A stretch of 64,000 nucleotides of DNA from a virus (IMGVR_UViG_3300005663_001084:24929-88928), one strand, 5' to 3'; shown: positions 2,700 through 63,663, counted from the stretch's first letter. Numbers and translations: made by a program. The notes: a model not told the origin generated them from the sequence alone.

Positions 2700-3092
2700 T
2701 CAGCGCAACCTGCGCCCGGTGCCGCCACGGTCCAGTTCTCCCCAGGGGAAGTACCAGATCTCGAAGTCGTCCGGGAGGTGCTCCGCCAGCCGCTTCGCGA
2801 CGTGATTTGCCTTCCGGGCGGCCATACGCTGCTCGAAAGCCCACGGCGTGAGGCTGGCCATGCGCTTCGTAACGTCGATGCGCCCGGCAAACTGCGGGGG
2901 TCCTTCCATGCCAACGTCGAGGTGGTAGGTGTCCGGATCGACACCTTCCTGGCTGGCGAAGCTGAACTGACCATCTGACCACTTCCAGGCGTCGAAGTCC
3001 TTGGAGCCGCTGCGGTAGTGGCCGATGTCGGTGTAGTGCTGAGGAGCGGCCTCGCAGAGCAGCTTACGGATGACTTGGCGGGTGGAGTCCAT
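2700..3092 (-). CDS. L-family protein 1; shares its C-terminal domain with 3092..4057
   Basis: N-terminus MDSTRQVIRKLLCEAA. ATGA-coupled to the upstream gene. Confidence 0.7.
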   Translation of the reverse strand: MDSTRQVIRKLLCEAAPQHYTDIGHYRSGSKDFDAWKWSDGQFSFASQEGVDPDTYHLDVGMEGPPQFAGRIDVTKRMASLTPWAFEQRMAARKANHVAKRLAEHLPDDFEIWYFPWGELDRGGTGRRLR

Positions 3093-4057
3093 CAGTACAT
3101 TCTCTGCCCAGGCCTGCCGCGTTGCTGCCCGCTGAAGTACCAGACCGCCTCGACCTCGGGGAACCGGTCGACGAGCCGCTTCACGACGACCTTCGCTTTC
3201 CGTGCAGCGATGGGATTGTCGAGCAGGTCCCAGGCCGTGATGCTGGCCTCGCGCCGCTGAGGGTCGTAGCGTCCGCCGAAGTCAGGAGCGCCCTGAGTGT
3301 CGTAAATCAGGTTGTGGAACTTGTTCGGATCGACGCCTTCATCGCTGGCAACGCGCAGCCGACCTTCGTCCCAGATCCACGCGTCGGTACCTTCGCCGTG
3401 GCCGACGGTGAGGTAGTTGGCGGGGGCTTCGTCCAGGACCGCCTCGGCCCGGACCAGGGATTTGTCCTGGATCTCGTAGCCCTCAACGGCACCGACGTTC
3501 GCATAGTCGAAGCCTTGCAGGACCGCAACTTTCTGTTCGGCGAACCGACCGTGGACGATGTAGTAGGCAGCCTGCCCAACGACCTCGGTGAACAGCGCAG
3601 GCCGGGCTTCCACGGTAGCCAGCTTGGCGTGCGTGTTGTACGCGGCGAGTTCCCCACGGAGTGTGAACGGCTGACCGCGGGCGATGTGCGTGAAGTAATC
3701 GTGGACGGTCCGGAATAGCAGATTGTCCTCGACGCTGAAGACCGGGTGCTCAGAATCTCCGCTGTAGATTTTTAGAACGCCTGTCTCGCGGAAGTCCCGC
3801 TGCATTTCTTCAGACGACTCGTACGGGTCCTCGTCCGTGTACTCGACACGGGACCGGCCCAGGAACCGGCGAAACAGAATTTTGTTGCTGCTGTTGAGCG
3901 CCTCCCAGTGGCGGGCCGCGTCCGGGTCGTAACTGGGAGCCTCCTCGTAGGCGTCAGCGACGAGCCGCGCGTACTCGTTAAAATCTTTAAGTTCGAGCTT
4001 CTCGCGCACGTCCGCTTCGAGAAGCAGCTTCCGGATGGCTGTGCGGGTAGCGTCCAT
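3092..4057 (-). CDS. L-family protein 2 (321 aa)
   Basis: N-terminus MDATRTAIRKLLLEAD. The C-terminal approximately 110 aa are homologous to protein 1 (EGVDP..., AARKA..KRL...WYF). Confidence 0.7.
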   Translation of the reverse strand: MDATRTAIRKLLLEADVREKLELKDFNEYARLVADAYEEAPSYDPDAARHWEALNSSNKILFRRFLGRSRVEYTDEDPYESSEEMQRDFRETGVLKIYSGDSEHPVFSVEDNLLFRTVHDYFTHIARGQPFTLRGELAAYNTHAKLATVEARPALFTEVVGQAAYYIVHGRFAEQKVAVLQGFDYANVGAVEGYEIQDKSLVRAEAVLDEAPANYLTVGHGEGTDAWIWDEGRLRVASDEGVDPNKFHNLIYDTQGAPDFGGRYDPQRREASITAWDLLDNPIAARKAKVVVKRLVDRFPEVEAVWYFSGQQRGRPGQRMY

Positions 4058-4431
4058 CAGATCTTCACGTCCTTCCGCAACGAAATGTGGACACCGGGGT
4101 TGATCTCGTCCAGCTTCAACCTGAGCTTGATGACCTCGACCTGATGCGGCCTGAGATTACGATCCCGCGCGGCGTAGAACGCGGCGTCCTTCGGGCTGTC
4201 AGCAACATACGTACCTGCCCGCAGAACGTCGTAATCACTGCGCTTCGGACGACCGTGATACAGTTCGACGGTCCCATCGAGCAGGATCGGGATGCCGTGG
4301 CGCTCCAGGTACTCGCCTACGGTTTCCTTGCCGAGAACCGGGTGGTCGAGCCAGACGCGGTTCAGACCCCCCTCGTCGTCGGCATCAGCCTCGTAGAGGA
4401 TCTTCCGGATGGCTTGGCGGGTGGCGTCCAT
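4057..4431 (-). CDS. L-family protein 3; possible H-Y-E ADP-ribosyltransferase- or Tpt1-like fold
   Basis: N-terminus MDATRQAIRKILYEAD. Motifs LYHGRP, GTYVADS and VEV. Confidence 0.65.
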   Translation of the reverse strand: MDATRQAIRKILYEADADDEGGLNRVWLDHPVLGKETVGEYLERHGIPILLDGTVELYHGRPKRSDYDVLRAGTYVADSPKDAAFYAARDRNLRPHQVEVIKLRLKLDEINPGVHISLRKDVKI

Positions 4432-4907
4432 CAGCGGCCCTCGATCTTGTCCGCGACGTTCACCATCTGCGAGAGCATGTTCCGGTAGCCGCCGCCGTGT
4501 TCGATGTTGGGGACGTCCGCGCTGTGAACCGCATCGATCTCGGTCTCACCGCGCTGAAGCGCCTCAATCGCCCGGTGGTGACCGTCCAGTATGAACCAGG
4601 CAGCGCGCTTTTCGAGCTTGCTGACCAGGAGCGGACTCTTAGCAGCATGGTAGGATAACTCCCCTTTCTCGATTTCACTGAAGGTTTTATCAATCTTCGG
4701 TTCCCAGGCGTACAGGCTGCGCAGCCGGACGCGCCAGGGTTTTCCCTTGATCGCGGCCTCAGCCAACAGACGCTTCACAAGATCGGGTGGGTAGCCCCGG
4801 TCAGAGCAGCCAGGAGGGGGTGCGGAGATCGAGCCGTCGCCGACCTGTTGGAAGACGCCGCGACCCTCGTTGAGGATGGAGCGAATGGCTTTGCGGGTGG
4901 GGTCCAT
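4431..4907 (-). CDS. L-family protein 4 with ParB/DGQHR-like nuclease domain
   Basis: N-terminus MDPTRKAIRSILNEG. Motif WFILDGHHRAIEALQRG, which is the ParB/Srx-type DGxHR signature. Confidence 0.7.
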   Translation of the reverse strand: MDPTRKAIRSILNEGRGVFQQVGDGSISAPPPGCSDRGYPPDLVKRLLAEAAIKGKPWRVRLRSLYAWEPKIDKTFSEIEKGELSYHAAKSPLLVSKLEKRAAWFILDGHHRAIEALQRGETEIDAVHSADVPNIEHGGGYRNMLSQMVNVADKIEGR

Positions 4908-7022: not shown

Positions 7023-7234
7023 CAGTCCTTCTCCATGTGCTCGCGGACACTCAGTTCTTCTTTAAGCACGTCGTAGTGATCCTGCCACGTGGACGAGTCC
7101 TTCGTGAGAAGCTGCGCGGTGTCCACAGGGTTGTCCCAACTGGGATTCTCCCGGCACGCAAGCAGCCGTTTGCGATAGGCCAGCAGGCGAGGCGTAGTGA
7201 GTTTTTTGAGTTCGTCAGCCGTGAGGAGCTTCAT
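7022..7234 (-). CDS. hypothetical protein
   Basis: Internal start MKLLTADELKK, ATGA-coupled. Confidence 0.4.
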   Translation of the reverse strand: MKLLTADELKKLTTPRLLAYRKRLLACRENPSWDNPVDTAQLLTKDSSTWQDHYDVLKEELSVREHMEKD

Positions 7235-7728
7235 CAGAGCCCCACATCCAGGGCTTCCTGATGCCGACAGTGATAACAAGTCGAAACCTGCGGATACTGC
7301 GTCCAGTGATGGTCTTTATGCCACTCGCGCGGGACGCCCTCCATGCCGCACAACGCCTTACCGTGGTAGAGGATGTGGACGATCAGGAACGAACGGGGCT
7401 TGGATGTCAAACCGTGCATGCGGGTGGCCGTCTCCAGGTCGTCGGCGAACGGCTGAACCAAGCGGTAGCCCACCGACTCACCGCCGCCGGACTGCGTCCC
7501 GTCGAGGGCAATCTTGAATATCACAGCGGAAGCGCCATGAGATTGGACCCGGATCAGGCCCCGGAGGCTCCTTTCACGGTCGTAGGTCGTCATCTCCATG
7601 TCGCCGTCGGGCATCGGGTCGTCGGTGAACGGGATCTCGGCGCGGGCCTGCTCGCAGGCCGCAACAAGCTCGCGGAGGGTCGTCTCGGTGAGAAGAACCC
7701 GGGCGGCGTTGATTTGGATCTCAGACAT
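7234..7728 (-). CDS. hypothetical protein
   Basis: ORF, coupled to its neighbours. Confidence 0.5.
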   Translation of the reverse strand: MSEIQINAARVLLTETTLRELVAACEQARAEIPFTDDPMPDGDMEMTTYDRERSLRGLIRVQSHGASAVIFKIALDGTQSGGGESVGYRLVQPFADDLETATRMHGLTSKPRSFLIVHILYHGKALCGMEGVPREWHKDHHWTQYPQVSTCYHCRHQEALDVGL

Positions 7729-14437: not shown

Positions 14438-14773
14438 TTAGTTGCCCCTCGTACGCGGCTGCCGCGTCTCGGGGTCCATCTCGTACGTCATCACTTCGTT
14501 GCAGAAAGTAATCGTCCCGCCGCCAGACAGTTTGCCGTCCCACACCTTGCCCCACGTCTCGTCTTCCCGCGAGCCAGTGATTGTGACACGGAACCCTACG
14601 TGTTCGCCTTCAGCGAGAACCCATGATGCCCCCGTCCAGTCTACACCTTCCGCCGGTTCCGCAACCCGCTGTCCCAGCGGATAACACAGCACCGTCTTGT
14701 TGCTAGGCATGGGAGTCTCGTCTTCAGGAGCCTCAGTGAGGAGGTGTCGGAGAGCTTTGCGGGTCTGATCCAT
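14438..14773 (-). CDS. L-family protein 5 (111 aa)
   Basis: Internal start MDQTRKALRHLLTEAPE of ORF 14438..15253. Confidence 0.65.
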   Translation of the reverse strand: MDQTRKALRHLLTEAPEDETPMPSNKTVLCYPLGQRVAEPAEGVDWTGASWVLAEGEHVGFRVTITGSREDETWGKVWDGKLSGGGTITFCNEVMTYEMDPETRQPRTRGN

Positions 14774-14836
14774 GGGCAGCAGTATACCTGGATATTCGAG
14801 GATTGCGAAATTGAAACGGGCAAAAATTTTGTGTGG
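14774..14836 (-). promoter_or_regulatory. class-2 upstream motif with a TATACT leaderless -10
   Basis: The reverse complement reads CACACAAAATTTTTGCCCGTTTCAATTTCGCAatcctcgaatatccaggTATACTgctgcccATG. Confidence 0.55.
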
Positions 14837-14837
14837 C

Positions 14838-15362
14838 TCAGGTCTGTAGGTCCAGGCGCAGGAAGATGGCTTCGTAATTCTCCCGGGACTCGCGATGCGT
14901 CTCCACAAAGCCAAAACGCTCGTACAAGTGGTGGGCCGCCCGCTCGTCGTCGAGATCAGACGTAAACAGCTTGAGGCACTCGTAGCCCTCATCCTTGGCC
15001 CGCTGAATCGTGAAGCGCAGCAAATCGGTCCCCAGGCCCTGCTTCCGGTGGTCGGGATGAACGCAGAACCAACCGACCCAGATCGCCTCGGGCGTAGGAA
15101 TCTCGTTGTAGAAGCCAGTAACCCCAGTGACCACACCGTTTTCAATAGCAACCCAGTAGCGAATGTCGGAGCACTCGTGGGCTTCCATGAAATCGGTGTG
15201 GGACCCAGGACGGGTGGCCTCCTCAAAGCAGCGCTTGATGGATTCCTGGTCATCGTCCTTGAACACCTGCTGCGTCAACAGCATGGCCTGATCGGCGAAC
15301 TCAGCGGTGAGCGGCAAGGGCTTCACAACAGTATTATTGGATCGGAAGGCCTGTTTACCCAA
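14838..15362 (-). CDS. GNAT family N-acetyltransferase
   Basis: Motif VHPDHRKQGLGTDLL (GNAT motif A) and C-terminal YERFGF. A GTG start near 15326, 6 nt after the promoter GATAAT-like -10, is equally likely. Confidence 0.7.
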   Translation of the reverse strand: MGKQAFRSNNTVVKPLPLTAEFADQAMLLTQQVFKDDDQESIKRCFEEATRPGSHTDFMEAHECSDIRYWVAIENGVVTGVTGFYNEIPTPEAIWVGWFCVHPDHRKQGLGTDLLRFTIQRAKDEGYECLKLFTSDLDDERAAHHLYERFGFVETHRESRENYEAIFLRLDLQT

Positions 15363-15375
15363 GGAAATCCGACTC
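15327..15375 (-). promoter_or_regulatory. class-1 leaderless promoter variant
   Basis: The reverse complement reads atttccTTGGGTAAAcAGgCCtTCCgATCCaATAATactgttGTG. Confidence 0.5.
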
Positions 15376-15867
15376 GGGAAACCTCTTCGCGCGTCGCATG
15401 AGAGCCTCAGGCGTCATCCGGGGGTGCATCAGGTCGGTGACATCGACCTTGATGGCCTCCCGCTGATCCCAGACGTCGAGGTAGACCGTGTCGCCCAGCG
15501 TCAGGCCGGGCAGCAGGACGCGCAGGCGATTCAGAACCTCGGAGTCGAGCGTGGGCACCGTAATCCCGTCGTCGTAGCCGCGAATCCAGCCGTGTTCTAG
15601 CGCTTCGGCCTCAACCCGTTGGCGGTCGTGGGGATCGTCGGAAACCGTGCTCACCTCGTCCAGCAACTCCTCGATGCCCGGGTCGCCAGGGTACATCTCA
15701 GGAAAGCGCCTCAAGGCCTCAGCGGCGTGCGTCGTCCAGCCACTCCCAGTCCAGCCACTCCCAATGTTGATGTACTCGCCGTCGGGCAGGAGCCACCAGC
15801 GGCCCAGCCATGTGGACTCGCGGGCCTCGGTGAGGATGGAACGGATGGCGTGACGGGTGGAATCCAT
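15355..15867 (-). CDS. L-family protein 6; WxLPDG-domain paralog of protein 7
   Basis: N-terminus MDSTRHAIRSILTEAR. Motifs WWLLPDGEYINIGSGW and HGWIRGYDDG. Confidence 0.7.
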   Translation of the reverse strand: MDSTRHAIRSILTEARESTWLGRWWLLPDGEYINIGSGWTGSGWTTHAAEALRRFPEMYPGDPGIEELLDEVSTVSDDPHDRQRVEAEALEHGWIRGYDDGITVPTLDSEVLNRLRVLLPGLTLGDTVYLDVWDQREAIKVDVTDLMHPRMTPEALMRRAKRFPESDFLG

Positions 15868-16391
15868 TAGGCCTGCCGCGTGACTTGGGCAGGATGCTTT
15901 GCCAGCAGAACCGTCTCCACATCGGCGTACATGTACCCACTGCCATATTCGAGCAGGATTTTGCCCTTCGTGGCACCCCGGTCGAGCAGGAACGTCTGTA
16001 TACGCCTCAGCGACTCAGCATCGAACTCCAGCATGTCGAAGCCGCCGGTATCGGTTACACGAATCCAGCCATCCCGGATCGCCACCTGCTCAGGGTTGTT
16101 CATGTAGCGCGCGACGAAGTCAGGCTTCTTGGCGTACTCCCGAGCAATATCGGCGTGGACGTCGTACCAGGGGCCGTCGAAGGTCTCGTCCATGATGTCC
16201 TGCTCAGAGGCCGACAGGAACCCCCAGTCGATCTCAGCAGCGACGGCCAGAGCAGCCGCCTCGTGATTCCAGCCACTGTCTTCAACAGTCACAACCTCGC
16301 CATCAGGCAGAATCCAGTAATCAGCACGGAGCACGTCGGCAGCATCGGACTCAGTGAGCAGCTTTCGGATGGCGTGACGGGTCTGATCCAT
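15867..16391 (-). CDS. L-family protein 7; WxLPDG-domain paralog of protein 6
   Basis: N-terminus MDQTRHAIRKLLTESD. Motifs YWILPDGEVVTVEDSGW and DGWIRVTDTGG. Confidence 0.7.
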   Translation of the reverse strand: MDQTRHAIRKLLTESDAADVLRADYWILPDGEVVTVEDSGWNHEAAALAVAAEIDWGFLSASEQDIMDETFDGPWYDVHADIAREYAKKPDFVARYMNNPEQVAIRDGWIRVTDTGGFDMLEFDAESLRRIQTFLLDRGATKGKILLEYGSGYMYADVETVLLAKHPAQVTRQA

Positions 16392-16460
16392 GGCGAAAAC
16401 ATCATATCAGGGAATCCGGGGATCTCGAAATTGAAACGGCCCAAAATTTTGTGTGTTCGG
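16392..16460 (-). promoter_or_regulatory. class-2 upstream motif
   Basis: The reverse complement reads CGAACACACAAAATTTTGGGCCGTTTCAATTTCGAGatccccggattccctGATATGatgttttcgccATG. Confidence 0.5.
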
Positions 16461-18426: not shown

Positions 18427-18954
18427 ATGGAAGAGCAGTGGAGGGTTATCCCCAGCGTCCCGTACTACGAGATCAGCGACCATGGTAGGGTTAGACGACT
18501 GGTGCCAGCTATTGGTACCTGGGTTGGCAGGGTCAAGACACCCTACGTCACAGCCAACGGCTACCTGAAGATCTCGTTGTCCGTGGACAAGAAGAGGTTC
18601 CAGCGCTTCGTCCACAGGTTGGTGGCAGAGGCGTTCATCGGTCCGATCCCAGACCTGCACCACGTCCATCACCTGGACCACGACAAGCAGAACAACCGGG
18701 CCACGAACCTGGAATGCCTGTCCCGCCGCCAGAACCAGCAGCTTACCCACACCACGCCGGTCAAGCGCAGCGCCATGGGCGGCATCCCTGAGATGCTGGT
18801 CCAGGCCTGGGCCAGGGGCTGGATGTTATGCGACGTGGCCGCTCAGCTTGAAGTGGACGAGGCACAGCTTAGCCGCTGGCTGCTACGGGAGGAGCTACCC
18901 AACGGTCGGCAGGCTGAGATCAGCCAGCGCCTGTGGTCGCTCGTGATAGGCTAG
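18427..18954 (+). CDS. HNH homing endonuclease (NUMOD4 plus HNH_3 type)
   Basis: Motifs PYYEISDHGRVRRL and HHVHHLDHDKQNNRATNLECLSRRQN. Confidence 0.75.
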   Translation: MEEQWRVIPSVPYYEISDHGRVRRLVPAIGTWVGRVKTPYVTANGYLKISLSVDKKRFQRFVHRLVAEAFIGPIPDLHHVHHLDHDKQNNRATNLECLSRRQNQQLTHTTPVKRSAMGGIPEMLVQAWARGWMLCDVAAQLEVDEAQLSRWLLREELPNGRQAEISQRLWSLVIG

Positions 18955-22292: not shown

Positions 22293-22709
22293 CTACCGGC
22301 CAGTAACTACGTAGCGGCTCTTGAGTTCGTCCCCGTCAACACTGGGATGGCTGTAGTAGACGCCTCCCTCGGAGGTGTACAGATCCACGTCGAGGGTACT
22401 GGTGAACTGGTCTACCGTAGGATCTAGGATGTGACTGCCGACGATCACCCATGTGTGGTCCCACTCCTCAAGCTCCTCGAATCCGGGCCGGTCTCCTGTG
22501 ACTGTGATGAACTGGCCGCCTTGGATCTTTGCCTGGATTCCTTTGGCGCGGAGAAGTTTGACGAGTCCCTCGGCGGTCTCGCTGCAATCCCCGAACTGGG
22601 CAACGTCGCACACGAACTGCTTACGGGCCTGCTTGGCAAGATCAATGGTGGCGTCCGTGATCGACTCAGTGAGCATCCTGCGTATGACTGTTCTGGTGGA
22701 GTCCATCAC
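22293..22709 (-). CDS. L-family protein 8
   Basis: N-terminus MMDSTRTVIRRMLTESI. Confidence 0.65.
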   Translation of the reverse strand: MMDSTRTVIRRMLTESITDATIDLAKQARKQFVCDVAQFGDCSETAEGLVKLLRAKGIQAKIQGGQFITVTGDRPGFEELEEWDHTWVIVGSHILDPTVDQFTSTLDVDLYTSEGGVYYSHPSVDGDELKSRYVVTGR

Positions 22710-23098
22710 ATGGCTCTCAACTTCTCAATGAACTCTACGACTTCCAGGTCTGCGAATTCCCTGTCCTGAAGCCACTCGTACGTGTCGCAGGGGACCTCGT
22801 AAGCCATAATGGACCGCGCACCCGACATCATTCTGGCAATCAGCCTGTGGTGTCCGTCCAGGAGTTTGCCGCACGCGATCCAGATCGGCGGAATGTCTTT
22901 GGCCTGCCGGAGCGCCGCGATCTTCTCCGGGTCCTGGTGTAGCTCGTAGGTCAGTATCTGCCTTGGGTCCTCTTCAACCAATTCGGCGGTCAGGTCGATC
23001 CCGGCTGCGCGGGCTTCGTCAACGACCTCCCGTTCCCAGTCCTTGAGAGGGTCGGCCTCGGTGAGCATCCTGCGTATGGCTGTTCTGGTTGGGTCCAC
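22706..23098 (-). CDS. L-family protein 9 with ParB/DGQHR-like domain
   Basis: GTG start. N-terminus (V)DPTRTAIRRMLTEAD. Motif KLLDGHHRLIARMMSG. Confidence 0.65.
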   Translation of the reverse strand: MDPTRTAIRRMLTEADPLKDWEREVVDEARAAGIDLTAELVEEDPRQILTYELHQDPEKIAALRQAKDIPPIWIACGKLLDGHHRLIARMMSGARSIMAYEVPCDTYEWLQDREFADLEVVEFIEKLRAM

Positions 23099-23145
23099 GG
23101 CAGGCAGTATACCCGGTGGGCCTCAGCATGGCGAGTAGAGCCTCT
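23099..23145 (-). promoter_or_regulatory. TATACT leaderless promoter
   Basis: The reverse complement reads TTGACTcacc...ccaccgggTATACTgcctgccGTG. Compare the 14774 copy, gTATACTgctgcccATG. Confidence 0.45.
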
Positions 23146-39671: not shown

Positions 39672-40103
39672 CTAAGCACCGTACTTCTCTCGTACGGTCT
39701 CCGCATACTTGGGCACCACAGCCACCGGGATCTGCTCGAAGCCTGCGTCACGCAGCACAGCGAAGCGGTGGCGACCGTTGGTGAATCCGGGCAGGCCGGA
39801 CTCGTACGGCCCAATCTCGGGCATGATGATCGGCACGTCCGGGTTGTCGTGGAACCACTGCTGGAACTTCTCATACCTGTTGCTGATCGTAGGCCCGGTG
39901 CCGCCGGGGCCTACGTAGTCCGACGACTGCGCCCAGGCCGCGTCGAACTTGGCCACGTCCACTACGACCTCAACATCGGTACCGGCACGTTCAGGTTTGA
40001 CGAACAGACGACCGCCAACATTGAACTTCTTGTGAGGAGAACTCTCCGGAGGCCGCTCCGCTGCCTCGGTCAGGATGTGGCGTATGGCTCGGCGCGCGTC
40101 CAT
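39672..40103 (-). CDS. L-family protein 10 with ParB-like domain
   Basis: N-terminus MDARRAIRHILTEAA. Motif GFTNGRHRFAVLRDAGF. Confidence 0.65.
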   Translation of the reverse strand: MDARRAIRHILTEAAERPPESSPHKKFNVGGRLFVKPERAGTDVEVVVDVAKFDAAWAQSSDYVGPGGTGPTISNRYEKFQQWFHDNPDVPIIMPEIGPYESGLPGFTNGRHRFAVLRDAGFEQIPVAVVPKYAETVREKYGA

Positions 40104-41095
40104 CAGTCACCTGCCTGACGCTGACGTTCCCGGCGGGCGAACAGCTTAGTCTTCTCTTTCTCCGCACGGCGTACAGACACAATCTTCACACTGGCATACT
40201 TGGTGCGTAGTTGATTGATCGCTTCGTGCCACCTGTCCACGCTTTTCATCACGTCGGTCCAGGTGTCGAAGGCGTAGCCTCGCTTACCCAAAAACGGAAA
40301 CTCCCCTGTCTTCTTCCAGTGCGGGTAAGCATCCATGTACTTCTGCTCAGGGCTGATCACCCAGATATCACTGGACTCCGGAACTTTAAGGGCACCGGAC
40401 TTCACTGCCCACTCGACCTCGGCAGAGTACAACGCGCCCATGTTCTTCACGCCCTGATGAAACCACTTCTTCCATTCGGAAGCGTCTGGGAAGTCCGGCT
40501 GGTCGTAGTCCAGGTGGCTCGTAATTGCTCTTCGGTATGGGTCGTCTGAGTTGTGCTCTTCATCCAGGAACTGCAAGAACAGCCTGACCATATCGTCGAC
40601 GCTGTTTATCCTGCGCCCTGATCTCGCGATCCAGTGGCCAAAACTCTGTAGTGGCCCGCTGTACTGGAATCCGTAGTGTTGCTGCGCCGCCCCGAAATCT
40701 CTGAGCGCTTTCAGGACGTAACTTCCCATCTTCGTAAGGATCTGCTGTGGGTCTCCGGGACTGTTGAACAGACGGCCGAGGGCTTCCATGTTGTTGGCCA
40801 TGAGGTACGCTGGATCGTCGTACCGGATCATCGATACGTCGTTGAGGGCGGCCACGTCATCGCCGGGCATGCGGATCAGGAGTTCGCGGAGTTGTCCCCA
40901 GTCCATGATCATGTCCTGAATGGACGTGGCCCCGATACCCTTCAGCCCTTCGAGGCGACCGCTCATCAGATTAGCGAGCATCTCGTCATAGTTATAGGAC
41001 CCGAAGTCCAGCGCGAGGTAGAAGTATTGAGGCACGGCAGCGTCGGCTGCCTCGGTCAGCATGATGCGGCGCATGGCTGTGCGGGTGGGGTCCAT
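40103..41095 (-). CDS. L-family protein 11 (330 aa)
   Basis: N-terminus MDPTRTAMRRIMLTEAA. ATGA-coupled. Confidence 0.7.
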   Translation of the reverse strand: MDPTRTAMRRIMLTEAADAAVPQYFYLALDFGSYNYDEMLANLMSGRLEGLKGIGATSIQDMIMDWGQLRELLIRMPGDDVAALNDVSMIRYDDPAYLMANNMEALGRLFNSPGDPQQILTKMGSYVLKALRDFGAAQQHYGFQYSGPLQSFGHWIARSGRRINSVDDMVRLFLQFLDEEHNSDDPYRRAITSHLDYDQPDFPDASEWKKWFHQGVKNMGALYSAEVEWAVKSGALKVPESSDIWVISPEQKYMDAYPHWKKTGEFPFLGKRGYAFDTWTDVMKSVDRWHEAINQLRTKYASVKIVSVRRAEKEKTKLFARRERQRQAGD

Positions 41096-41718
41096 CAGTA
41101 GTAGCTCGGGTTGTAGGGCCGGTCCTCGCCGTACTGCTCGACCAGGGCACGCAGGCTGTCGTCCAAATGCTCGACGGCCTCGCGATACTTGCTGTTGTTG
41201 AGTGGGTAGTACAGGGTGCCTGTCCGCTCGTAGACTACGAGAATCCCCAACGTCGCCTCGGCCAGCTTGATGACCACGTCGTAGCAGGCGTCAGCCGCCG
41301 CGCGGTACAGCGGGTCCTCCACCTGGAGCGAGCCCTTCATCCTGGTGGCGCGCTTGCGTAGCCGTGTCGCGGCCTTCTGCATCGACTCCAACGACTCGTC
41401 CTTGTACTTGCTGACCTCCAGGTGCTCGCGGTACACGTCGCGTACATACTCTTCGTTGACGTGGCGGATGATGCCCATCTCTTCGTTGATGTGGCCGACC
41501 TCGATGCGGAGCGGGCTGGCCTTCGCATAGACCGCAGAGCCCAGCGAGCCCAGGATGCAGTGGACCGCCTCGGCGATGCGCTGGAGGCCAATCTCGTACT
41601 CGGTGTATGCCTGGAACCAGCCGCCTTCTGGCAGGCCGCCGTAGATCGTGCCAAGGGCGCAGTGGTCAGGCGCAGCTTCGGTCAGCATCTGGCGTATGAC
41701 GTGGCGTGTCTGGTCCAT
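41095..41718 (-). CDS. L-family protein 12
   Basis: Internal start MDQTRHVIRQMLTEAA of ORF 41095..41817. Confidence 0.65.
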   Translation of the reverse strand: MDQTRHVIRQMLTEAAPDHCALGTIYGGLPEGGWFQAYTEYEIGLQRIAEAVHCILGSLGSAVYAKASPLRIEVGHINEEMGIIRHVNEEYVRDVYREHLEVSKYKDESLESMQKAATRLRKRATRMKGSLQVEDPLYRAAADACYDVVIKLAEATLGILVVYERTGTLYYPLNNSKYREAVEHLDDSLRALVEQYGEDRPYNPSYY

Positions 41719-41722
41719 CGCG

Positions 41723-43399
41723 TTACTCGAACAGGTGGATCTCTTTCGGATTGAACTCAGCTTCAAGGACTCCCTGAAGTTTGCCGGTCCACTTGTACTG
41801 ACCGGGGTTGACAACACTGAGCCTGCCGGTGTCGCCCTCGAAGTGGCCTTTCCAACGGCTATCGACAGGAGGGTCCAAGTAGTCCCAGACTAGGTTGTGC
41901 GACCACGTGGGCAGTTCACCGTGCTCCTGAAAATACTCTTCCATGGCTTCGTCGTCTTCCAGGTCGAAGTCAACCAAGTCTTCCATGATCTGTTGATGGC
42001 GCTCGACTTGACCGTGATTCAGCACCCATATCTCATGTGTTCTTGGGTCTGTATAATCCATCTCGAACTCGTCGCCAGGATCGACATGGTACGCCTCGTT
42101 GCCATGCCCAAGCTCGAAGTAGAATATCGCTGTACTTTCGTCACCAACCGTGTGCGGGACGACAGGAGACTCGGTCAGCAGGATACCGCGCATGATCTGC
42201 CGCATCGAGTCCGCCACGTGCCGCTCGCGTCCGCGCTGTCCGTAGGCGGGCTCCCCGAACTCGTCCGGCCACGGCGTGTCTTTGTACGACTGAAACTGTG
42301 GATCATCCAAGAACGTGCCAAGGTGTTTCCACCGCAGACGCAGGAGTTCCTCAGGAAGAAGCTCGTGCGTTCGGCTTTGGTTAAGCGGCCACGGGTTGGT
42401 GGGCCTTTCCTCGTCTCCCGGCATGAGGTCGCGTACGCTGCCGGGCTTGACGACGAACGTCGGTCCCACGCGCTCGATGTACTGCCTCCAGAACTCGGGG
42501 TCCGGCTTGCCGTAGAGTACCGTGTAGCGCTGGTACATGTCCGCGCCGGTCCTGGGCATCTGTCTCCAGTGCCATGCGTTGTCGTTCTGGACCGCCCAGA
42601 GGATCTTGTTGGCTCCCCGAAAGCCCACGTCCTGGTCAAGCCGGATGTTGCTGGCCCCAAACATCGCGCCTTTTGTATGCTTGGCGATCTGACCGCGCAC
42701 GGCCCGGAGCAGCTTCTCGTGCGCCTCGCGGACGATTGGCGTCGTCTTGGCTGTCCCACTCCAAGGATCGGTTGCCTTCTCTTCAATCGCCGCGCGCATC
42801 CAAGCTCGGATCATTTCCTTGTATGGGCGGAAGAGTCTCAGGGCGAACTCGCCGGGCATGCGCCGTTCGAGCTTCTCGTTCAAGAACCCGATGAAGTCCT
42901 CGAAGCTCGGCATCATGGCCCCGTCTACCTTGTCGTACCACTCCTTGTCCCAGTGCGCTGCCCCGGTCGCCTTCCGGTAGCTCTCCCAGTCAAGACTGTC
43001 AAGCGCGATCAGGATGGCCTGGGCCGTGTCCGACGAGGGGATGTTCTGGCCCACTCGGCGCATGAAGAGCGTGAGAGGGATGCTGGCCGAAAGCTGGTCT
43101 TCGTCGAACAGCGCGGTCCGCGTCTCGACCTGGAGGCCGAACACGACCGGCGCGCCGCCGAACTTCTCGGCTGCCTTTCTGGCTTCGCTCTCTGCCGTCA
43201 TCGCGTTCTGTGTAGCATAGATGCCTCCGTACGAGGCGATGGTGCCGCGCTCGGGATCGTACTGGCGCTGCTCGGGAGGAATGTCGGCACGCAGGCCCTC
43301 CTTGAAGACCAGACGGGCGCGGCCTGAAGACGTTCCGTGATAGTAGATCTCGCGGGCTTCGGTGAGCATCCTACGTATGGCTTGTCGGGCTGCGTCCAT
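41723..43399 (-). CDS. L-family protein 13 (about 558 aa); possible H-Y-E ADP-ribosyltransferase-like N-terminal domain; internal second leader motif
   Basis: N-terminus MDAARQAIRRMLTEARE. Candidate ART motifs YYHGTSSGR and YGGIYAT. Internal copy SMRQIMRGILLTES. The C-terminal approximately 170 aa are homologous to protein 14 (FYFELGHGN...LPTWSH...KGHFEGDTGRLS...EIHLFE). Confidence 0.7.
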   Translation of the reverse strand: MDAARQAIRRMLTEAREIYYHGTSSGRARLVFKEGLRADIPPEQRQYDPERGTIASYGGIYATQNAMTAESEARKAAEKFGGAPVVFGLQVETRTALFDEDQLSASIPLTLFMRRVGQNIPSSDTAQAILIALDSLDWESYRKATGAAHWDKEWYDKVDGAMMPSFEDFIGFLNEKLERRMPGEFALRLFRPYKEMIRAWMRAAIEEKATDPWSGTAKTTPIVREAHEKLLRAVRGQIAKHTKGAMFGASNIRLDQDVGFRGANKILWAVQNDNAWHWRQMPRTGADMYQRYTVLYGKPDPEFWRQYIERVGPTFVVKPGSVRDLMPGDEERPTNPWPLNQSRTHELLPEELLRLRWKHLGTFLDDPQFQSYKDTPWPDEFGEPAYGQRGRERHVADSMRQIMRGILLTESPVVPHTVGDESTAIFYFELGHGNEAYHVDPGDEFEMDYTDPRTHEIWVLNHGQVERHQQIMEDLVDFDLEDDEAMEEYFQEHGELPTWSHNLVWDYLDPPVDSRWKGHFEGDTGRLSVVNPGQYKWTGKLQGVLEAEFNPKEIHLFE

Positions 43400-43403
43400 T
43401 GCG

Positions 43404-45230
43404 CTACTCAAAAACGTGAATTTCAGTCGGGCTGAACTCGGAGCGGAGCATTCCGATCAACTGGTTGGTGAGTTTGAAGCGTCCAGGGTTCATGGCGCTG
43501 AGCCTTCCGGTGTCACCCTCATAATGACCTTTCCAGTACTGGTCGGGGTTCGGCCAGAGCATACCATGCGACCACGTGGGCAAGCCTCGTCCCTTCTCTT
43601 CTTGTTGATCGACGTAAGCCTGCAACGCTTCGGGATCGCTTAGGTCAACACCCTCGTCCTCGATGTTAGGCATGTTAAGCTGATGGTAACGCTGGATTTC
43701 GCCGTGCATCAGAACCCAAATCTCATGGGTCAGCGGATCGGTGTACTCCATCCCGTCGTCATACGAGGTGTTCCCGTGTCCGAGGTCGAAGTAAAATACG
43801 GATGTACCTTCATCGTCGATCTTGTGGAGCGTGACATCGCTGGCGACGACAGATTCGGGGAGGCTCTCCTTGTCCATCACCACAAGAGCCGGAAGCGCCT
43901 CGACACCCAGGACGTGGAGAGCGTCGTACCGGTGGCTGCCCTCCAGGACGTACGGGCCTTCTTTGTCGACAACCACGATCAGCGGCACGATCCAACCACT
44001 TGCAGCGATCTGCTGCGCCAGTTCGCGGGCCGCCTCGTTGTCATCTCCAGAAGTCTCGAAAGCAGACAAGGGAACGGCGCGGATGCCGGACAGCACCTCG
44101 TAGTCCAGAAGACTGGCCGCGATGGAACTGGTATTTGGAACTTCGTCACCCACGCGGAGGCCGCTGACCTCGTCACCAGCCCGTGGGTAGAGTTCGTCCT
44201 CCTGGGCCTCGGCGAGTATTCGACGTATCACACGTCGGCTTTCGGTCAGCGCCTCGTCCTGCCCGGCGTAAAACCTGCGGATCGCACCCATGATGCGGCG
44301 CGAGTTTTCTCCGGGATCGAACATGTAGGACTTATTCCGTTCGGCCTTCCAGTAGTAGTCGTTACGCTCGTCGAATTCGCCCAGGCCGTCCTCCATATCG
44401 ACCGGCATGCCCTCGGCGCTGAAGTTATCGATCCAGCCCTCCAAGGTCCGGTACTGCGCCGAGGTGGGCTGGACCATCATGTCGAGGCCGCCGTCTTCAG
44501 GCATCAGACGGATCGCGCCCAGGCTCATAAACTCCTGCATGCCGCGCGTGCCGCCCCCGCCGTAACCGATGTTCCGATGGTCAAAGCCGCGCCCGTAGCC
44601 GCCGCCCCCGCCCGAGATCATGTCGCCGTCAGGCAGCAAGTAGAACGCATCGGTGAAGCTGCTCGTGATCCCGAACCGGCCCTTGGCTTTCTCGAACGGG
44701 TCGGCCTCGTCCTCCGCGTCCTCTACGCCGGGCCAGTCCTCCATGGACAGCGGCATCTCGTTGTCTAGCTTTCGGAGAACCTGGAGCGGGATCTCGCGGT
44801 ACCTGGACTCCTGGCCGTTCTGCACACTACGGAATACGGAGCGAGCGTACTCTCCGGCCGACCAGCCGAACTCGTCACTGATCACTCCAATGATCCGGGC
44901 GTGGAAGTCCAGCAGTATCTGGGGTTCGTTCTGGACGAGCGCAGCCATCTCTCCCGGATTCCAGTTGAGTGCGTCGTAGACCGCGCTCCAGATAGTCCGG
45001 TGCTCACCCTCGTCGAACGTAGCCAGCGTGTACTCGGGGAACAGTTCAGTGACAATCCTCTCGTAGCGCTGCCAGTCGTAGTCCCTGTCCTCCTCACGGT
45101 TTACCGCGTCCAGGAAGAACTCCCGCAGGTGATCGTACGTCATGTTCCAGACGTGCCGAGGCTGGGTGGGAGCCTCAACGCTGGCCTGCTCGGCCAACAC
45201 CTGCCGCATCACTAGGCGAGTGGCATCCAT
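43404..45230 (-). CDS. L-family protein 14 (about 608 aa) with internal leader copy, ParB-like domain and a C-terminal domain shared with protein 13
   Basis: N-terminus MDATRLVMRQVLAEQ. Internal copy ESRRVIRRILAEAQ. ParB-like motif YVLEGSHRYDALHVLG. C-terminal FYFDLGHGN...LPTWSH...EIHVFE. Confidence 0.7.
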   Translation of the reverse strand: MDATRLVMRQVLAEQASVEAPTQPRHVWNMTYDHLREFFLDAVNREEDRDYDWQRYERIVTELFPEYTLATFDEGEHRTIWSAVYDALNWNPGEMAALVQNEPQILLDFHARIIGVISDEFGWSAGEYARSVFRSVQNGQESRYREIPLQVLRKLDNEMPLSMEDWPGVEDAEDEADPFEKAKGRFGITSSFTDAFYLLPDGDMISGGGGGYGRGFDHRNIGYGGGGTRGMQEFMSLGAIRLMPEDGGLDMMVQPTSAQYRTLEGWIDNFSAEGMPVDMEDGLGEFDERNDYYWKAERNKSYMFDPGENSRRIMGAIRRFYAGQDEALTESRRVIRRILAEAQEDELYPRAGDEVSGLRVGDEVPNTSSIAASLLDYEVLSGIRAVPLSAFETSGDDNEAARELAQQIAASGWIVPLIVVVDKEGPYVLEGSHRYDALHVLGVEALPALVVMDKESLPESVVASDVTLHKIDDEGTSVFYFDLGHGNTSYDDGMEYTDPLTHEIWVLMHGEIQRYHQLNMPNIEDEGVDLSDPEALQAYVDQQEEKGRGLPTWSHGMLWPNPDQYWKGHYEGDTGRLSAMNPGRFKLTNQLIGMLRSEFSPTEIHVFE

Positions 45231-45688
45231 CAGCCCCAGGCTTCCTTGTCGTGCTGTACCAGCGCGCGGGTCATGTCCTGGGTGAGCGGCTCGACGTTGA
45301 TGGTGTCTTCCGACGGGACCGCAGCCATCCGCTTGAGCCACTGCCCTTCCGCCCCGGCCTGCGAAAGCGGGTCTGCCGTGTCGACCTCCCACTCCTCGCC
45401 GCTCGGGCTGAACGTGACAATGGAGATGTCGCCGCTCCCCATGGCCTGATTCAGATCCCAGTCCATCTTCGAGGCCCAGCGTATGGCGTCGAACTTGTTA
45501 TCGAACGCGAAGATTTCACCCTGGCCGTAGCGCTCGCCAGTCCCAGACATGGCCCAGTTGGAGGGCTGCATCGGGACGAGCCCACGCTTCTGGATATCTG
45601 AGACCCGGTCAGTGGGGGTGACGTGGTAGTACTCGACGCCCTGGGCCTCGGTGAGTATCCGTCTGAGGGCTCTGCGGGTGGGGTCCAT
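45230..45688 (-). CDS. L-family protein 15; possible ART-like fold
   Basis: Internal start MDPTRRALRRILTEAQ. Motifs YYHVTPTDR, GEIFAFD and EEWEVD. Confidence 0.6.
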   Translation of the reverse strand: MDPTRRALRRILTEAQGVEYYHVTPTDRVSDIQKRGLVPMQPSNWAMSGTGERYGQGEIFAFDNKFDAIRWASKMDWDLNQAMGSGDISIVTFSPSGEEWEVDTADPLSQAGAEGQWLKRMAAVPSEDTINVEPLTQDMTRALVQHDKEAWG

Positions 45689-45727
45689 GGAGGTGAATCT
45701 TACTCGTTTTGGCATCCCCGAGTCAAT
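45689..45727 (-). promoter_or_regulatory. sigma70-like promoter for the 45688-to-39672 L-family operon
   Basis: The reverse complement reads TTGACT-N18-TAAGATtcacctccATG. Confidence 0.5.
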
Positions 45728-52273: not shown

Positions 52274-52711
52274 ATGTCAGACGACAGCCCCCTCGACTAC
52301 GACCGGGTCCTGAACCGGATTGTCGACGGTATCGAAGGTATGCTGCCCGACCCGTTACAGTGGAGTTCGGACCGCGTCAAGACAATCATACGAGCGATCC
52401 TGGTCGAGGTGGAAGAGGTCGTCCACATCTCCTCGCACAACGCGGGATGCGCCATCGCGGCCAACAAGCTGCTCGACATCGCCAAGACAGGCAGGCACGG
52501 CGGAACCTTCGGGGGCGAGTCCATGGAGGCTTGCGCCCAGGAGATCCTCAAGCTGCACGCCGACCACCTGCGCATGGAGAAGCTGGAACGAGGCGATTCT
52601 CTCTGCATCGAGAGAGGAACCCCGATCACCACACGTCAGTTAGTCCTTCCCGAGGGGGACACGCTGCGAGAGCAAATCGACAAGGCCGAATTTACCAACG
52701 AGGTGACCTGA
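52274..52711 (+). CDS. hypothetical protein
   Basis: Internal start MSDDSPLDYDR. Confidence 0.45.
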   Translation: MSDDSPLDYDRVLNRIVDGIEGMLPDPLQWSSDRVKTIIRAILVEVEEVVHISSHNAGCAIAANKLLDIAKTGRHGGTFGGESMEACAQEILKLHADHLRMEKLERGDSLCIERGTPITTRQLVLPEGDTLREQIDKAEFTNEVT

Positions 52712-59955: not shown

Positions 59956-59970
59956 GTAGGAGGACTGCTC

Positions 59971-61508: not shown

Positions 61509-61805
61509 GACCGTGTCCCGAACGCCGCCCTTCTTCTGGGGCGGCTCACCCAGATCCAGTTCGCCCTGAACCTCTTTCGGCTCCGGCTTGACCGGCTTCT
61601 CCTCAGGCTCCGGCTCGGAATGCTGGACTAGCTGGCCCGGCTTGGTCCGAGCGTGCACACTGCGACGGGAAGTCTCATTCTGGACGTCCTCCCAGTCCAC
61701 CTTGTAGCGCTCGGACGCCTTGAAGATGGACTGCATGAAGGGAAGGCCACGCTGGCGACGAAGCTGGGATGCGAAGTCGGCGGCTCTTTCGATACGGTCA
61801 GGCAT
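61488..61805 (-). CDS. hypothetical protein
   Basis: ORF. Confidence 0.45.
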   Translation of the reverse strand: MPDRIERAADFASQLRRQRGLPFMQSIFKASERYKVDWEDVQNETSRRSVHARTKPGQLVQHSEPEPEEKPVKPEPKEVQGELDLGEPPQKKGGVRDTVLRALRN

Positions 61806-61818
61806 GATTGGTCCTCAG

Positions 61819-62295
61819 TTATGGGCCGAACAGGGTACGGACCTGGATCTTCGACTCCAGTGTAGCCTGCTTGCTCTCGAACTTGTAGCGGCGAAGCTCT
61901 CCGGGGTTGATGATGTCGAGGAAGTCCCGGTAAGGAACCTCGAAGATCTGCATGCCCCTGCCGCCGGGACCACTGATGTCGATGTAGAACTGGGTACCCA
62001 TCTCCCGGACGCCTGCGTCGAGGTAGGTCTGCTGGACTCGGCGGAGCAGATCCTTGGTGAGCGTCTGCGCCTCAAATCCAGTCCCGACTAAGCGCGCCCA
62101 GCCCTGAGCCTTGGCCCAGTCCTCGTAGGTGCCGCCCTCCAGGTCCTTGTTGAAGCGCTCGCGGTAGTAATCCCCGGCGACCGCTTCGTGCCGACGCTGT
62201 CCGGTCACGGGCAGGATGGTCCCGTCAGGCAGGAGCCAACTGTACGTGGCGTCTGCCTCAAGCAGGAGCGTAGTGACGTCGTGCTGCGAGGTCAT
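61819..62295 (-). CDS. WxLPDG-domain protein; homolog of L-family proteins 6 and 7 but lacking the leader
   Basis: Internal start MTSQHDVTTLLLEADATYSWLLPDGTILPVTGQRRHEAVAGDYY. Compare YWILPDGEVVTV in protein 7. Confidence 0.5.
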   Translation of the reverse strand: MTSQHDVTTLLLEADATYSWLLPDGTILPVTGQRRHEAVAGDYYRERFNKDLEGGTYEDWAKAQGWARLVGTGFEAQTLTKDLLRRVQQTYLDAGVREMGTQFYIDISGPGGRGMQIFEVPYRDFLDIINPGELRRYKFESKQATLESKIQVRTLFGP

Positions 62296-62316
62296 ACTTG
62301 ACTTTCTTCCTGGGGT

Positions 62317-63219
62317 TTGTACAATAGGATCATGTACAAGACCTGCACAAACCCGACGTGCCAACAGTCTAACCCACAGTCGGTCTCAAACTTCGCTATC
62401 GACCGGCGTGTCAAGACGAAGATATCTTATCAGGCTAGGTGCAGGGACTGCAAGCGGCAAGCCGCCCGGGAGAACAGGCGGAAACGTGTACAGGAGAGCA
62501 AGGGTCTTTATTCTCGATGGAGTACGATGAAAACTCGGTGCTATAACAAGAACTGCGACGCGTATAAGTACTATGGAGCCCGAGGGATTGAGGTATGTAA
62601 AGGCTGGAGAGAATCCTACGGAGCCTTTGAGGCGTGGGCTCTAGCCTCCGGCTACGACCCGAAGAAGACGCTGGACCGCGTAGACTGCACCGGACCGTAC
62701 TCCCCAGATAACTGCCGGTGGGCGACGTGCCAGGAGCAGGCACTAAACACTCGTAGGACGAATCCTGGAAGACACAAGCCAAAGCCCAGAAAGAGTAAGT
62801 CCAGCAGAGCCCCTCTCGAAGTAGTGATGAAAAGACGCTGGTACGATATGCGAAACAGATGCAGCAATCCGAACAACAGAGCGTACCTCCACTACGGGGG
62901 CAGAGGCATTCTCATAGCCTCAGAGTGGCAGGACTTTGCCACCTTCCGCATTTGGCTGATCAGCCAGGGTTTCAAGGTAGAACTTACATTGGATCGTGTC
63001 GACGTAAACGGATCGTACTCCCCAGAAAACTGTCGGCTTGCAACAAGAACACAGCAAGCCAGAAACACACGACAGGTTAGGTTGTCCAGAGAAAAGGCAG
63101 CAGAGATCAGGATACTCTCTGCCCAAGGTGTATCCGGTAGGCAGATCGCCAAGCGATTTGGAGTTACGCCACCAACCATTTACTCAGTGCTAAACGGAAG
63201 ACTTTGGCGCACGCCATAG
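62317..63219 (+). CDS. tandem-domain DNA-binding protein (actinophage HNH-like/YGGRGI family) with C-terminal HTH; lower GC
   Basis: Two repeats of RW..M..RC.N.....Y.YYG(A/G)RGI.VC..W..F..F........LDRVD..G.Y.P.NCR.AT, followed by RQIAKRFGVTPPTIYSVLNG. Confidence 0.5.
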   Translation: MYNRIMYKTCTNPTCQQSNPQSVSNFAIDRRVKTKISYQARCRDCKRQAARENRRKRVQESKGLYSRWSTMKTRCYNKNCDAYKYYGARGIEVCKGWRESYGAFEAWALASGYDPKKTLDRVDCTGPYSPDNCRWATCQEQALNTRRTNPGRHKPKPRKSKSSRAPLEVVMKRRWYDMRNRCSNPNNRAYLHYGGRGILIASEWQDFATFRIWLISQGFKVELTLDRVDVNGSYSPENCRLATRTQQARNTRQVRLSREKAAEIRILSAQGVSGRQIAKRFGVTPPTIYSVLNGRLWRTP

Positions 63220-63663
63220 ACGACACCAACCTTCTGGTCGAATCCAATTCCTTATTTGTGAACATAAATTCTTCCCGTTCGAGACTTTCATGTACGAAAA
63301 TTCACAATTCCCGCAGCGCTGAGTCTCGCTGGCCGACTCGTCGGTGTACTCGGCGTCGGCAGGGTCCATCTTGTACGCGTCGGTGCCGCTGCCCAGGATG
63401 TAGTAGAGCAGGGGCTCACGCATCTGGACCTCGGGCGGCAGGCGGGACCAGTCGCGGATCACCTTCTTGACCGGGGAGGGAGCCTGGGTTCCGGCCTCCG
63501 GATAGCCGCGCACCCGGACCGGCTTCTCCGGTGCAGGGTCCGGTTGCGGATTGAGGTCGCGGGGCTCGACGGTGCCCTGCGACATCATCTCTTCGTCGTC
63601 CTCAGGCGGGAGCGGGGCCTGCTCGTTCAGCAGCTTCCGCATCGCCCTGCGTGTCTGGTCCAT
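63190..63663 (-). CDS. L-family protein 16
   Basis: N-terminus MDQTRRAMRKLLNEQA. C-terminal CGNCEF...C. Confidence 0.65.
   Translation of the reverse strand: MDQTRRAMRKLLNEQAPLPPEDDEEMMSQGTVEPRDLNPQPDPAPEKPVRVRGYPEAGTQAPSPVKKVIRDWSRLPPEVQMREPLLYYILGSGTDAYKMDPADAEYTDESASETQRCGNCEFSYMKVSNGKNLCSQIRNWIRPEGWCRLWRAPKSSV

Follow-up and report, generated by a model that had tools for sequence, protein, structure and literature searches.

In phage T4, a capsid-targeting sequence (CTS) of 10-19 residues forms an N-terminal propeptide that directs the internal proteins IPI-III and Alt into the scaffolding core and is removed by gp21 (PMC9026906), which cuts at L/I-x-E (PMC9026906, PMC5694885), and the CTS is the sole common part of the polymorphic internal proteins of the T-even phages (PMC3012670, PMC12373910). 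In the giant phage SPN3US, gp53 and gp54 have an identical 15-residue N terminus (PMC5694885), and a case has been made that the 'polyvalent' proteins of phages and conjugative elements are packaged and injected (Iyer, Burroughs, Aravind et al. 2017, PMC5512222). Here we describe a 15-residue leader peptide that opens a series of genes with otherwise unrelated products in 64,000 nucleotides (nt) of viral sequence (IMGVR_UViG_3300005663_001084:24929-88928; hereafter the window, in whose coordinates all positions are given), the study of the leader spanning positions 2700-63663. Judged by analogy with T4, this leader may well be a CTS-like capsid-targeting propeptide with a protease site, which would also mark the joints at which protein modules are swapped.

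Sixteen genes of the window open with the pattern M-D-x-T-R-x-[AV]-[ILM]-R-x-[ILMV]-L-x-E-[ASGQ], and the carriers number at least 17 when a degenerate member at 61819-62295 (leader MTSQHDVTTLLLEAD) is counted. The leaders are all encoded on the minus strand, at the starts of open reading frames (ORFs). A first-pass annotation of the window had listed 16 minus-strand starts, and all 16 ORFs do begin with the motif; its start at 22709 (a GTG) is better replaced by the ATG at 22706, which is more plausible and gives the canonical MDSTR, with the leader itself standing as described. The gene at 23098 starts with GTG, and two members contain single-residue indels (m40103 reads MDA-RRAIR and m41095 reads RRIMLTEA). 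Over all six frames, a hidden Markov model (HMM) of the leader gave 16 matches of 20.7-35.6 bits and one internal match of 13.7 bits (nt ~44237), with all remaining sequence at 6 bits or below, and a degenerate DNA pattern of the leader matched 10 times compared to 0.00 expected from shuffled sequence. L12 and E14 are invariant (16/16 members), while position 15 is A, S or G in 14/16 and Q in 2/16, so that the ending noticed in the first pass, L-x-E followed by a small residue, holds at the level of the motif. The genes fall into five groups, at 2700-4907 (four genes), 14438-16391 (three), 22293-23098 (two), 39672-45688 (seven) and 61819-63663 (two), within which the start codon mostly overlaps the upstream stop codon; together the 17 genes total 11,355 nt, or 17.7% of the window.

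The first 45 nt of the leader genes have a mean pairwise identity of 0.67, which divides into 0.70, 0.79 and 0.52 at the first, second and third codon positions. The invariant R9 is encoded by five codons, and the longest nucleotide run shared between leaders has a median of 7 nt, with maxima of 17-18 nt between neighbouring genes. Because of these three observations we conclude that selection acts mainly on the peptide, in agreement with the earlier claim that the leader is not a DNA repeat. Columns with the same amino acid share the codon in 49.5% of cases compared to 40.1 +/- 3% in simulations that drew on the genes' own codon usage (the observed value was reached in 4 of 2000 runs), with ACC at T4, CGC at R5 and CTC at L12 over-represented, and a small residue remains of shared ancestry, gene conversion or nucleotide-level constraint.

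The leader is appended to the cargo folds and forms no part of them: AlphaFold2 renders it as a separate, low-confidence helix, and distant homologues of one cargo lack it. In the model of m45230 (22 sequences, mean predicted local distance difference test score (pLDDT) 72.8), residues 2-15 form a helix with pLDDT <50 and residues 16-26 have no secondary structure, while the domain that follows, here called X, reaches 90-95. In the model of m45688 (predicted template modelling score 0.75), the helix spans residues 3-16 (pLDDT ~61) and the core begins at residue 20; the cargo of this protein thus starts about three residues after the leader helix, and a flexible linker is present in some other members. 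The three nearest homologues of m45688 (79-91% identity) retain the leader, and the distant homologues P0037 and P0038 (46-49% identity in the alignment) open directly at 'YHVT' (MIGQTFYHVT). The leader itself is a short amphipathic helix with R5 and R9 on one face and A/V7, I/L/M8, I/L/M11 and L12 on another. A test for Tat or Sec signal peptides found no hydrophobic h-region of at least 12 residues, and the sequence after the leader is polar, acidic or proline-rich; a Tat-signal reading of 'TRRAMRKLL' in one member, m63663, was rejected for want of the hydrophobic core.

The tag recurs at module junctions within the carriers. Leader-like motifs occur inside m45230, m43399 and m4907, with a degenerate one in m4057, all at domain boundaries, and the strict internal pattern is found three times in 3,462 cargo residues compared to none in the 14,731 residues of the window's other predicted genes. 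The longest carrier, m45230 (43404-45230, 608 aa), consists of the leader, the X domain (aa ~24-324), an internal leader LTESRRVIRRILAEAQ (nt 44202-44249, aa 328-343), a ParB/sulfiredoxin (Srx) domain (aa ~344-460) and a second domain called Z; its internal motif is modelled inside a helix (residues 326-347, pLDDT 50-68) between two well-modelled domains. The adjacent m43399 (41723-43399, 558 aa) carries the leader, a PARP-like ADP-ribosyltransferase (ART), a middle region, the internal motif SMRQIMRGILLTESP (nt 42164-42208, aa 398-412) and the Z domain shared with m45230. In m4907 (4431-4907, 158 aa), the leader is followed by a 25-aa spacer, a second motif PDLVKRLLAEAA (nt 4752-4787, aa 41-52) and a DGHHR-motif domain that is possibly ParB/Srx-like, and in its homologue P0026 the leader sits directly on that domain. 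The degenerate motif of m4057 (3092-4057, 321 aa), SLVRAEAVLDEAP (nt 3422-3460, aa 200-212), separates a domain without assignment from one resembling m3092.

Relatives from metagenomes present the same pieces in other arrangements. In P0003, the leader directly precedes the ParB domain that is internal to m45230, and an internal SCRQIMRGILLTESP precedes the Z domain. P0024 (498 aa) holds three copies of the motif, at residue 1, ~170 (IDESTRSIIRRLLTEA) and ~364 (IDQTRHAIRKLLTEA), which precede, respectively, an ART-PolyVal-like module, a DGHHR (ParB-like) module with a zinc ribbon, and a GNAT module, and the gene after P0024 again opens with the leader. On contig L016, the X domain runs through ...DESLTECRHVIRRMLTERAE directly into the Z domain, and the ParB domain has a gene of its own, which opens with a diverged leader, MDTGREAVLRILLEQ; after the common stretch '...RRFYAGQDE[AS]LTE[SC]R[RH]VIRR[IM]L', the window continues into ParB and L016 into Z. 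Module order differs among m45230, P0003, P0024 and L016, and their homology stops precisely where the motif ends.

The first-pass description of the cargo as unrelated or falling into sub-families was borne out by comparison, which recovered the sub-families. The middle domain of m45230 is firmly assigned to the ParB/sulfiredoxin fold (Pfam ParB_N E = 2e-4, PDB ParB chains E = 0.005, and Foldseek matches to sulfiredoxin and ParB). Elsewhere this domain is fused to Mu-gp29-type portal proteins (P0011, P0012) and MuF head-morphogenesis proteins (P0016, P0019) and occurs in ART-PolyVal/PARP polyvalent proteins (P0015, P0017-P0019, P0021), with E values for these fusions of ~1e-25 to 1e-34 in a local 21-sequence library and 1e-17 to 1e-26 in whole-database terms. 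Fold searches with the X and Z domains gave no convincing match. The C-terminal half of X recurs (37% identity over aa 166-304) in a 2201-aa protein at 8837-15442 of contig L015 (IMGVR_UViG_3300033142_001753); this protein had no Pfam matches and its neighbour genes were uninformative, and it is probably a giant polyvalent protein.

ADP-ribosyltransferases form a second class of cargo. Gene m45688 (45230-45688, 152 aa), the first of the seven-gene cluster, joins the leader to an ADP-ribosyltransferase-fold domain, and the N terminus of m43399 is 29% identical to m45688 and 27% identical to the C-terminal stretch of P0017, a protein with a PARP (PF00644) annotation, from which we assign it with moderate confidence as a related ART. 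On cargo of the m45688 type, other short N-terminal extensions are also found (P0036 MKLRIIESTEKF, P0033 MNFKQYIESEQHE, P0034 MSMRRLVSRLEEAADRKTT). The extensions MKLRIIESTEKF, MNFKQYIESEQHE and MSMRRLVSRLEEAAD sit on the same ART domain in other metagenome lineages (P0033, P0034, P0036); one such extension, MKLRIIE-S, is compatible with a T4-type I-x-E site, and lineage-specific tags may be a wider phenomenon. The homologue P0034, with its different extension, adjoins two T4-gp19-type tail-tube genes on the same strand, and P0037, which has no extension, is placed among early-type genes of another phage.

The remaining assignments are of varying strength. The cargo of m63663 (63190-63663, 157 aa), reached through a proline- and acid-rich linker, is firmly identified as a HiPIP-like 4-Cys domain (25.0 bits compared to a Pfam cut-off of 22). 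The cargo of m22706 (22293-22706, 137 aa) is weakly suggested to be transglutaminase-core-like, with a possible transglutaminase- or papain-like Cys-His-Asp domain (Transglut_core E = 0.019, below the curated cut-off). A GxHR motif is common to m4907, m23098 (22706-23098, 130 aa, GTG start, leader and DGHHR-motif domain) and m40103 (39672-40103, 143 aa, leader with a one-residue deletion MDARRAIRHILTEA and NGRHR-motif domain, 26.1 bits); because hhalign gave a ParB probability of at most 53% and PDB sequence searches with the three proteins returned no ParB match, their link to ParB was kept at the level of the motif and any assignment beyond it was dropped. Among the relatives, P0024 matches Pfam ART-PolyVal at E = 4.6e-5, below the curated cut-off, and the cargo includes GNAT-like, protein-kinase-like and ART-PolyVal modules, all below Pfam cut-offs. 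At least two disparate effector domains are combined in m45230 (X, ParB/Srx, Z), m43399 (ART, Z) and P0024 (ART-PolyVal, ParB-like, zinc ribbon, GNAT), and most leader members carry a single module. By these domain assignments, the cargo set appears to overlap the domain repertoire of the virion-delivered polyvalent proteins.

Taken as a portable address tag, the leader would dock unrelated enzymes onto a single partner common to all of them, and the prohead under assembly is the most likely one, with its scaffold, its core or the inner surface of the capsid as the docking place. The tagged enzymes would end up inside the head and enter the host together with the DNA, and the ending [ILMV]-L-x-E followed by A, S or G would most likely be where a head-maturation protease removes the tag. 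Internal copies would be cut by the same protease, splitting multi-module proteins into their modules, and the tag would mark the joints at which cargo modules pass between genes. Loading into the prohead and later removal fit the position and length of the leader, its amphipathic helix, the L-x-E-small end, the internal copies and the cargo repertoire, and the gene neighbourhoods of P0034 and P0037 give a further hint.

Compared with the T4 CTS, the leader is likewise a short N-terminal peptide (15 residues, 10-19 in T4) that is the sole common part of unrelated proteins, ends in [L/I]-x-E plus a small residue and is carried by several genes per genome in variable loci, with an ADP-ribosyltransferase among the cargo (Alt in T4). 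It differs in having 17 carriers in 64 kb compared to 3-10 per T-even genome, in cargo that is mostly enzymes and acidic where T4 has small basic inhibitors, and in occurring also between modules; moreover, its bearer is an uncultured ~225-kb sediment phage, with no T4 head genes seen in the window and its flanks. The first-pass annotation had likened the ending to the cleavage sites of both T4 and phiKZ, of which only the T4 motif fits because the phiKZ and SPN3US sites are S/A-x-E (PMC5694885). Those giant phages (proteases gp175 and gp245) do pack many partly paralogous proteins into the head, whose N-terminal propeptides are thought to target them, but besides the different sites these propeptides are mostly longer than 100 residues, unrelated cargo does not carry one common short tag, and homologues of their inner-head and ejection proteins were not found here. 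With the polyvalent proteins, the system has in common extensive module shuffling and predicted injection with the DNA, and its domains appear to overlap theirs in a ParB domain (possibly DdrB-like) that elsewhere is fused to portal or MuF, in ART-PolyVal (seen only in a relative) or PARP-like ARTs, and in GNAT and peptidase-like modules. The modules here are, in contrast, mostly separate genes with their own tag and not parts of one giant MuF- or portal-anchored polypeptide; the window has no MuF, portal or structural gene, only distant homologues of the cargo being so fused, and the leader is not among the described polyvalent domains as far as Pfam shows.

Several observations weigh against a capsid-targeting role. 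No capsid, scaffold, portal or prohead-protease gene was recognised in the window or in a few kb of flanks, which were reached via 30-kb, 8-kb and 7-kb assemblies of the same region, and the leader genes are placed in blocks of small uncharacterised genes beside nucleotide and NAD metabolism genes, with no structural module. The cargo is mostly acidic (median isoelectric point 5.0) where the T4 internal proteins are basic, one cargo is a HiPIP electron carrier and so an odd candidate for injection, and strong pairwise evidence of virion association exists for the ParB domain only. Compared by eye, the sequence of the leader does not resemble that of the T4 CTS (MKTYQEFIAE), and L-x-E is a common helical tripeptide, so that the reading as a cleavage site rests on analogy. 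A sigma-70-like site before one cluster head would further suggest early expression; the T4 ip genes are also made early.

Some of these points would sit well with a leader that docks to a partner other than the capsid, such as a phage compartment, a chaperone or adaptor, a host hub or a helix-bundled multi-enzyme complex, with no packaging into virions. An amphipathic helix before the cargo, with a linker in some members, is an architecture familiar from microcompartment encapsulation and encapsulin cargo peptides, which are short, amphipathic, sometimes flexibly linked and send unrelated enzymes into a shell (that of encapsulins having the HK97 capsid fold); the acidic cargo, including the HiPIP, and the location of the genes in non-structural regions near metabolic genes, with a sigma-70-like promoter at one cluster head, also agree with it. 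Those shells are not virions, however, their peptides are not removed by a maturation protease and bear no sequence resemblance to the leader, and nothing in the window hints at a compartment shell or adaptor. A processing site accounts better for the invariant L-x-E-small end and for the copies at internal junctions, and in other phages the ParB cargo occurs in fusions with portal and MuF proteins; we therefore regard docking outside the capsid as unlikely. Less probable again is that the leader is mainly a recombination joint, a 5' cassette boundary inherited at duplication with little or no function as a peptide. The variable module order among relatives, the break in homology exactly at the motif end, the concentration of the longest identical runs (17-18 nt) in neighbouring genes, the modest excess of shared codons (0.495 compared to 0.401) and a 30-nt upstream element shared by m14773 and m16391 along with the leader would all be consistent with such a joint, but the third-position identity of 0.52, the median shared run of 7 nt and the five R9 codons speak against it, and diverged relatives keep the amino-acid pattern with different DNA, which points to a peptide under selection. 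That recombination takes place at the tag is in any case compatible with a capsid-targeting propeptide and not an alternative to it.

It is very improbable that the conserved 5' region acts at the level of RNA or translation, for instance in leaderless or coupled initiation, with the peptide as a by-product. Four cluster heads do lack a Shine-Dalgarno sequence and show a -10-like hexamer 7-9 nt ahead of the start codon, the starts of inner genes run into the preceding stop codon, and the codons over-represented at T4, R5 and L12 could reflect such a constraint; yet synonymous sites vary widely, the peptide is retained in internal copies that lie well away from a start codon, and the window's other genes, including a GNAT gene within a leader cluster, start without the leader. 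The first-pass annotation had itself raised a further explanation, that the leader is simply the first helix of a fold common to all members, which would agree with its predicted helicity and with a chance lookalike that is the N-terminal helix of a Streptomyces protein (CoA-binding by eye). This idea is barely tenable and already contradicted, because the cargo folds differ (ART, ParB/Srx, HiPIP and others), the low-confidence helix is detached from the domains, homologues exist without the leader and copies also lie between domains. A capsid-targeting propeptide thus remains our preferred interpretation of the leader.

The distribution of the leader is narrow. In 1.84 billion representative proteins, the leader HMM had seven matches at E <= 0.001, comprising five N-terminal matches, the three-copy P0024 and one spurious repeat. 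The DNA pattern had no match in IMG/VR, three in JGI metagenomes (of which one, L006, is plausible) and two in GTDB genomes, about the number estimated by chance. One GTDB match (L013, 5653-5694; Streptomyces spiroverticillatus BMUX01000013.1) lies in a protein of CoA-binding type by eye that opens MDDTRQAIRKILLES, a near-perfect chance match; the leader sequence is therefore that of an ordinary amphipathic helix, and single matches prove nothing. Arrays of leader genes were found on the related metagenome contigs L008, L009, L010, L014 and L016 (via Logan, ENA, JGI and NCBI), where the leaders are progressively diverged and mostly keep an h-h-x-E-[ASQ] ending. The leader had seemed in the first pass to belong to no described family, and we likewise found no match in Pfam or the libraries searched, the HMM search returning only this lineage, and no paper describing it in a literature search.

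The other carriers have cargo that is largely uncharacterised. In the first group, m3092 (2700-3092, 130 aa, 34.0 bits) joins the leader MDSTRQVIRKLLCEA to a domain common to the C terminus of m4057 (40% identity), and m4431 (4057-4431, 124 aa, 35.2 bits) carries a small domain that is ART-like by eye only, with no Pfam match. In the second, m14773 (14438-14773, 111 aa) has uncharacterised cargo, and m15867 (15355-15867, 170 aa) and m16391 (15867-16391, 174 aa, 35.6 bits) are paralogues with a 'WLLPDG' and a 'WILPDG' domain, respectively. Between m14773 and m15867 lies a GNAT acetyltransferase gene without the leader (14838-15326, minus strand, E = 4e-18), and GNAT-like modules of the relatives P0024 and L010 bear the leader. 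The seven-gene cluster also includes m41095 (40103-41095, 330 aa, 20.7 bits), whose leader has a one-residue insertion and whose cargo is uncharacterised, and m41718 (41095-41718, 207 aa, 35.3 bits), with helical uncharacterised cargo and a product identical to P0025. The degenerate 17th member (158 aa) has a 'WLLPDG' domain and shares homology with P0004 and P0006 in their N-terminal module (E = 5e-55 against P0004 residues 1-142). Near m63663, an upstream minus-strand ORF (63602-63946) overlaps the start of the gene by ~62 nt and a plus-strand gene (~62527-63219) with a weak HTH_7 match overlaps its 3' end by ~30 nt, and gene calls around 63190-63663 may need revision. Below the HMM threshold, a weak leader-like N terminus MSEIQINAARVLLTETT opens the protein at 7234-7728 (minus strand) and a weak leader-like stretch SSDRVKTIIRAILVE occupies ~aa 31-45 of that at 52274-52711 (plus strand); these could be decayed copies or chance.

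Upstream of m45688, a sigma-70-like TTGACT-18-TAAGAT at nt 45697-45726 ends 8 nt before the ATG. Counting this gene, four cluster heads (regions 45689-45726, 14774-14790, 23099-23115 and 16392-16410, minus strand) have a -10-like hexamer (TAAGAT, TATACT, TATACT and TATGAT) that ends 7-9 nt before the start, the TATACT hexamers standing 7 nt before the start codons of m14773 and m23098. From these sequences, the mRNAs of the cluster heads may be leaderless, in which case the gene at 23098 would start with GTG. A 30-nt element, CACACAAAATTTT[TG]G[CG]CCGTTTCAATTTCG, is present in exactly two copies, at 14806-14835 and at 16426-16455 (minus strand), ~35-60 nt upstream of the cluster heads m14773 and m16391, and may be a duplicated promoter or regulatory region travelling with the leader. 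A candidate shared promoter, GGTATACTGC, was rejected as not enriched (5 matches compared to 1.9 expected).

The window (59% G+C) looks like a huge-phage accessory region, rich in small genes without assigned function. The m45230 product is identical to the NCBI entry 'hypothetical protein LCGC14_0164260 [marine sediment metagenome]', from a record of 224,854 bp. We found no near-identical phage record for the window, a tblastn search of 50,697 phage records with m45230 and m45688 found no match, and the ParB segment of m45230 alone had only weak matches there, to Arthrobacter phages. The best matches of a nucleoside-deoxyribosyltransferase/Nudix protein are uncultured huge phages (LR745208, 42%) and Bacillus phage G. 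HNH endonucleases, a T4_Y13H domain, an orotidine monophosphate decarboxylase and an HD hydrolase are also encoded, and a search of the window for tRNA genes found none. A homing-endonuclease-like gene with HNH_3 and NUMOD4 (18427-18954, plus strand) is set within a long block of minus-strand genes and is probably a mobile insertion. At 34857-37140 (plus strand), a nicotinamide mononucleotide (NMN)-adenylyltransferase/Nudix gene is followed by one for nicotinamide phosphoribosyltransferase, an NAD+ salvage pair that could restore NAD+ used by the phage's own ADP-ribosyltransferases or by NAD-depleting host defences.

If the leader is a capsid-targeting propeptide, a CTS-like system exists in an unrelated, uncultured lineage of huge phages, new relative to T4 in its many more carriers, its polyvalent-type enzyme cargo and the presence of the tag between modules. 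We also consider, more tentatively, a huge-phage lineage in which a compact address tag with a cut site brings dozens of unrelated enzymes into the capsid (ARTs, ParB-type nucleases, acetyltransferases, kinases, peptidases and an iron-sulfur protein) and in addition splits multi-module precursors, which would amount to a disassembled, tag-based equivalent of the polyvalent proteins and could let the injected effectors of uncultured phages in general be listed from such tags in their sequences; shared modules link the stand-alone effectors to such giant proteins. As a capsid-loading signal, the leader would allow the first-strike proteins that an uncultured giant phage injects to be recognised from sequence alone, here at least 17 candidate enzymes of host takeover or anti-defence, and would provide a second, unrelated tag for packing foreign proteins into phage heads. 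The T4 strategy of one tag with many interchangeable cargoes would then have a counterpart in a distant lineage, either of independent origin or too far diverged to be recognised.

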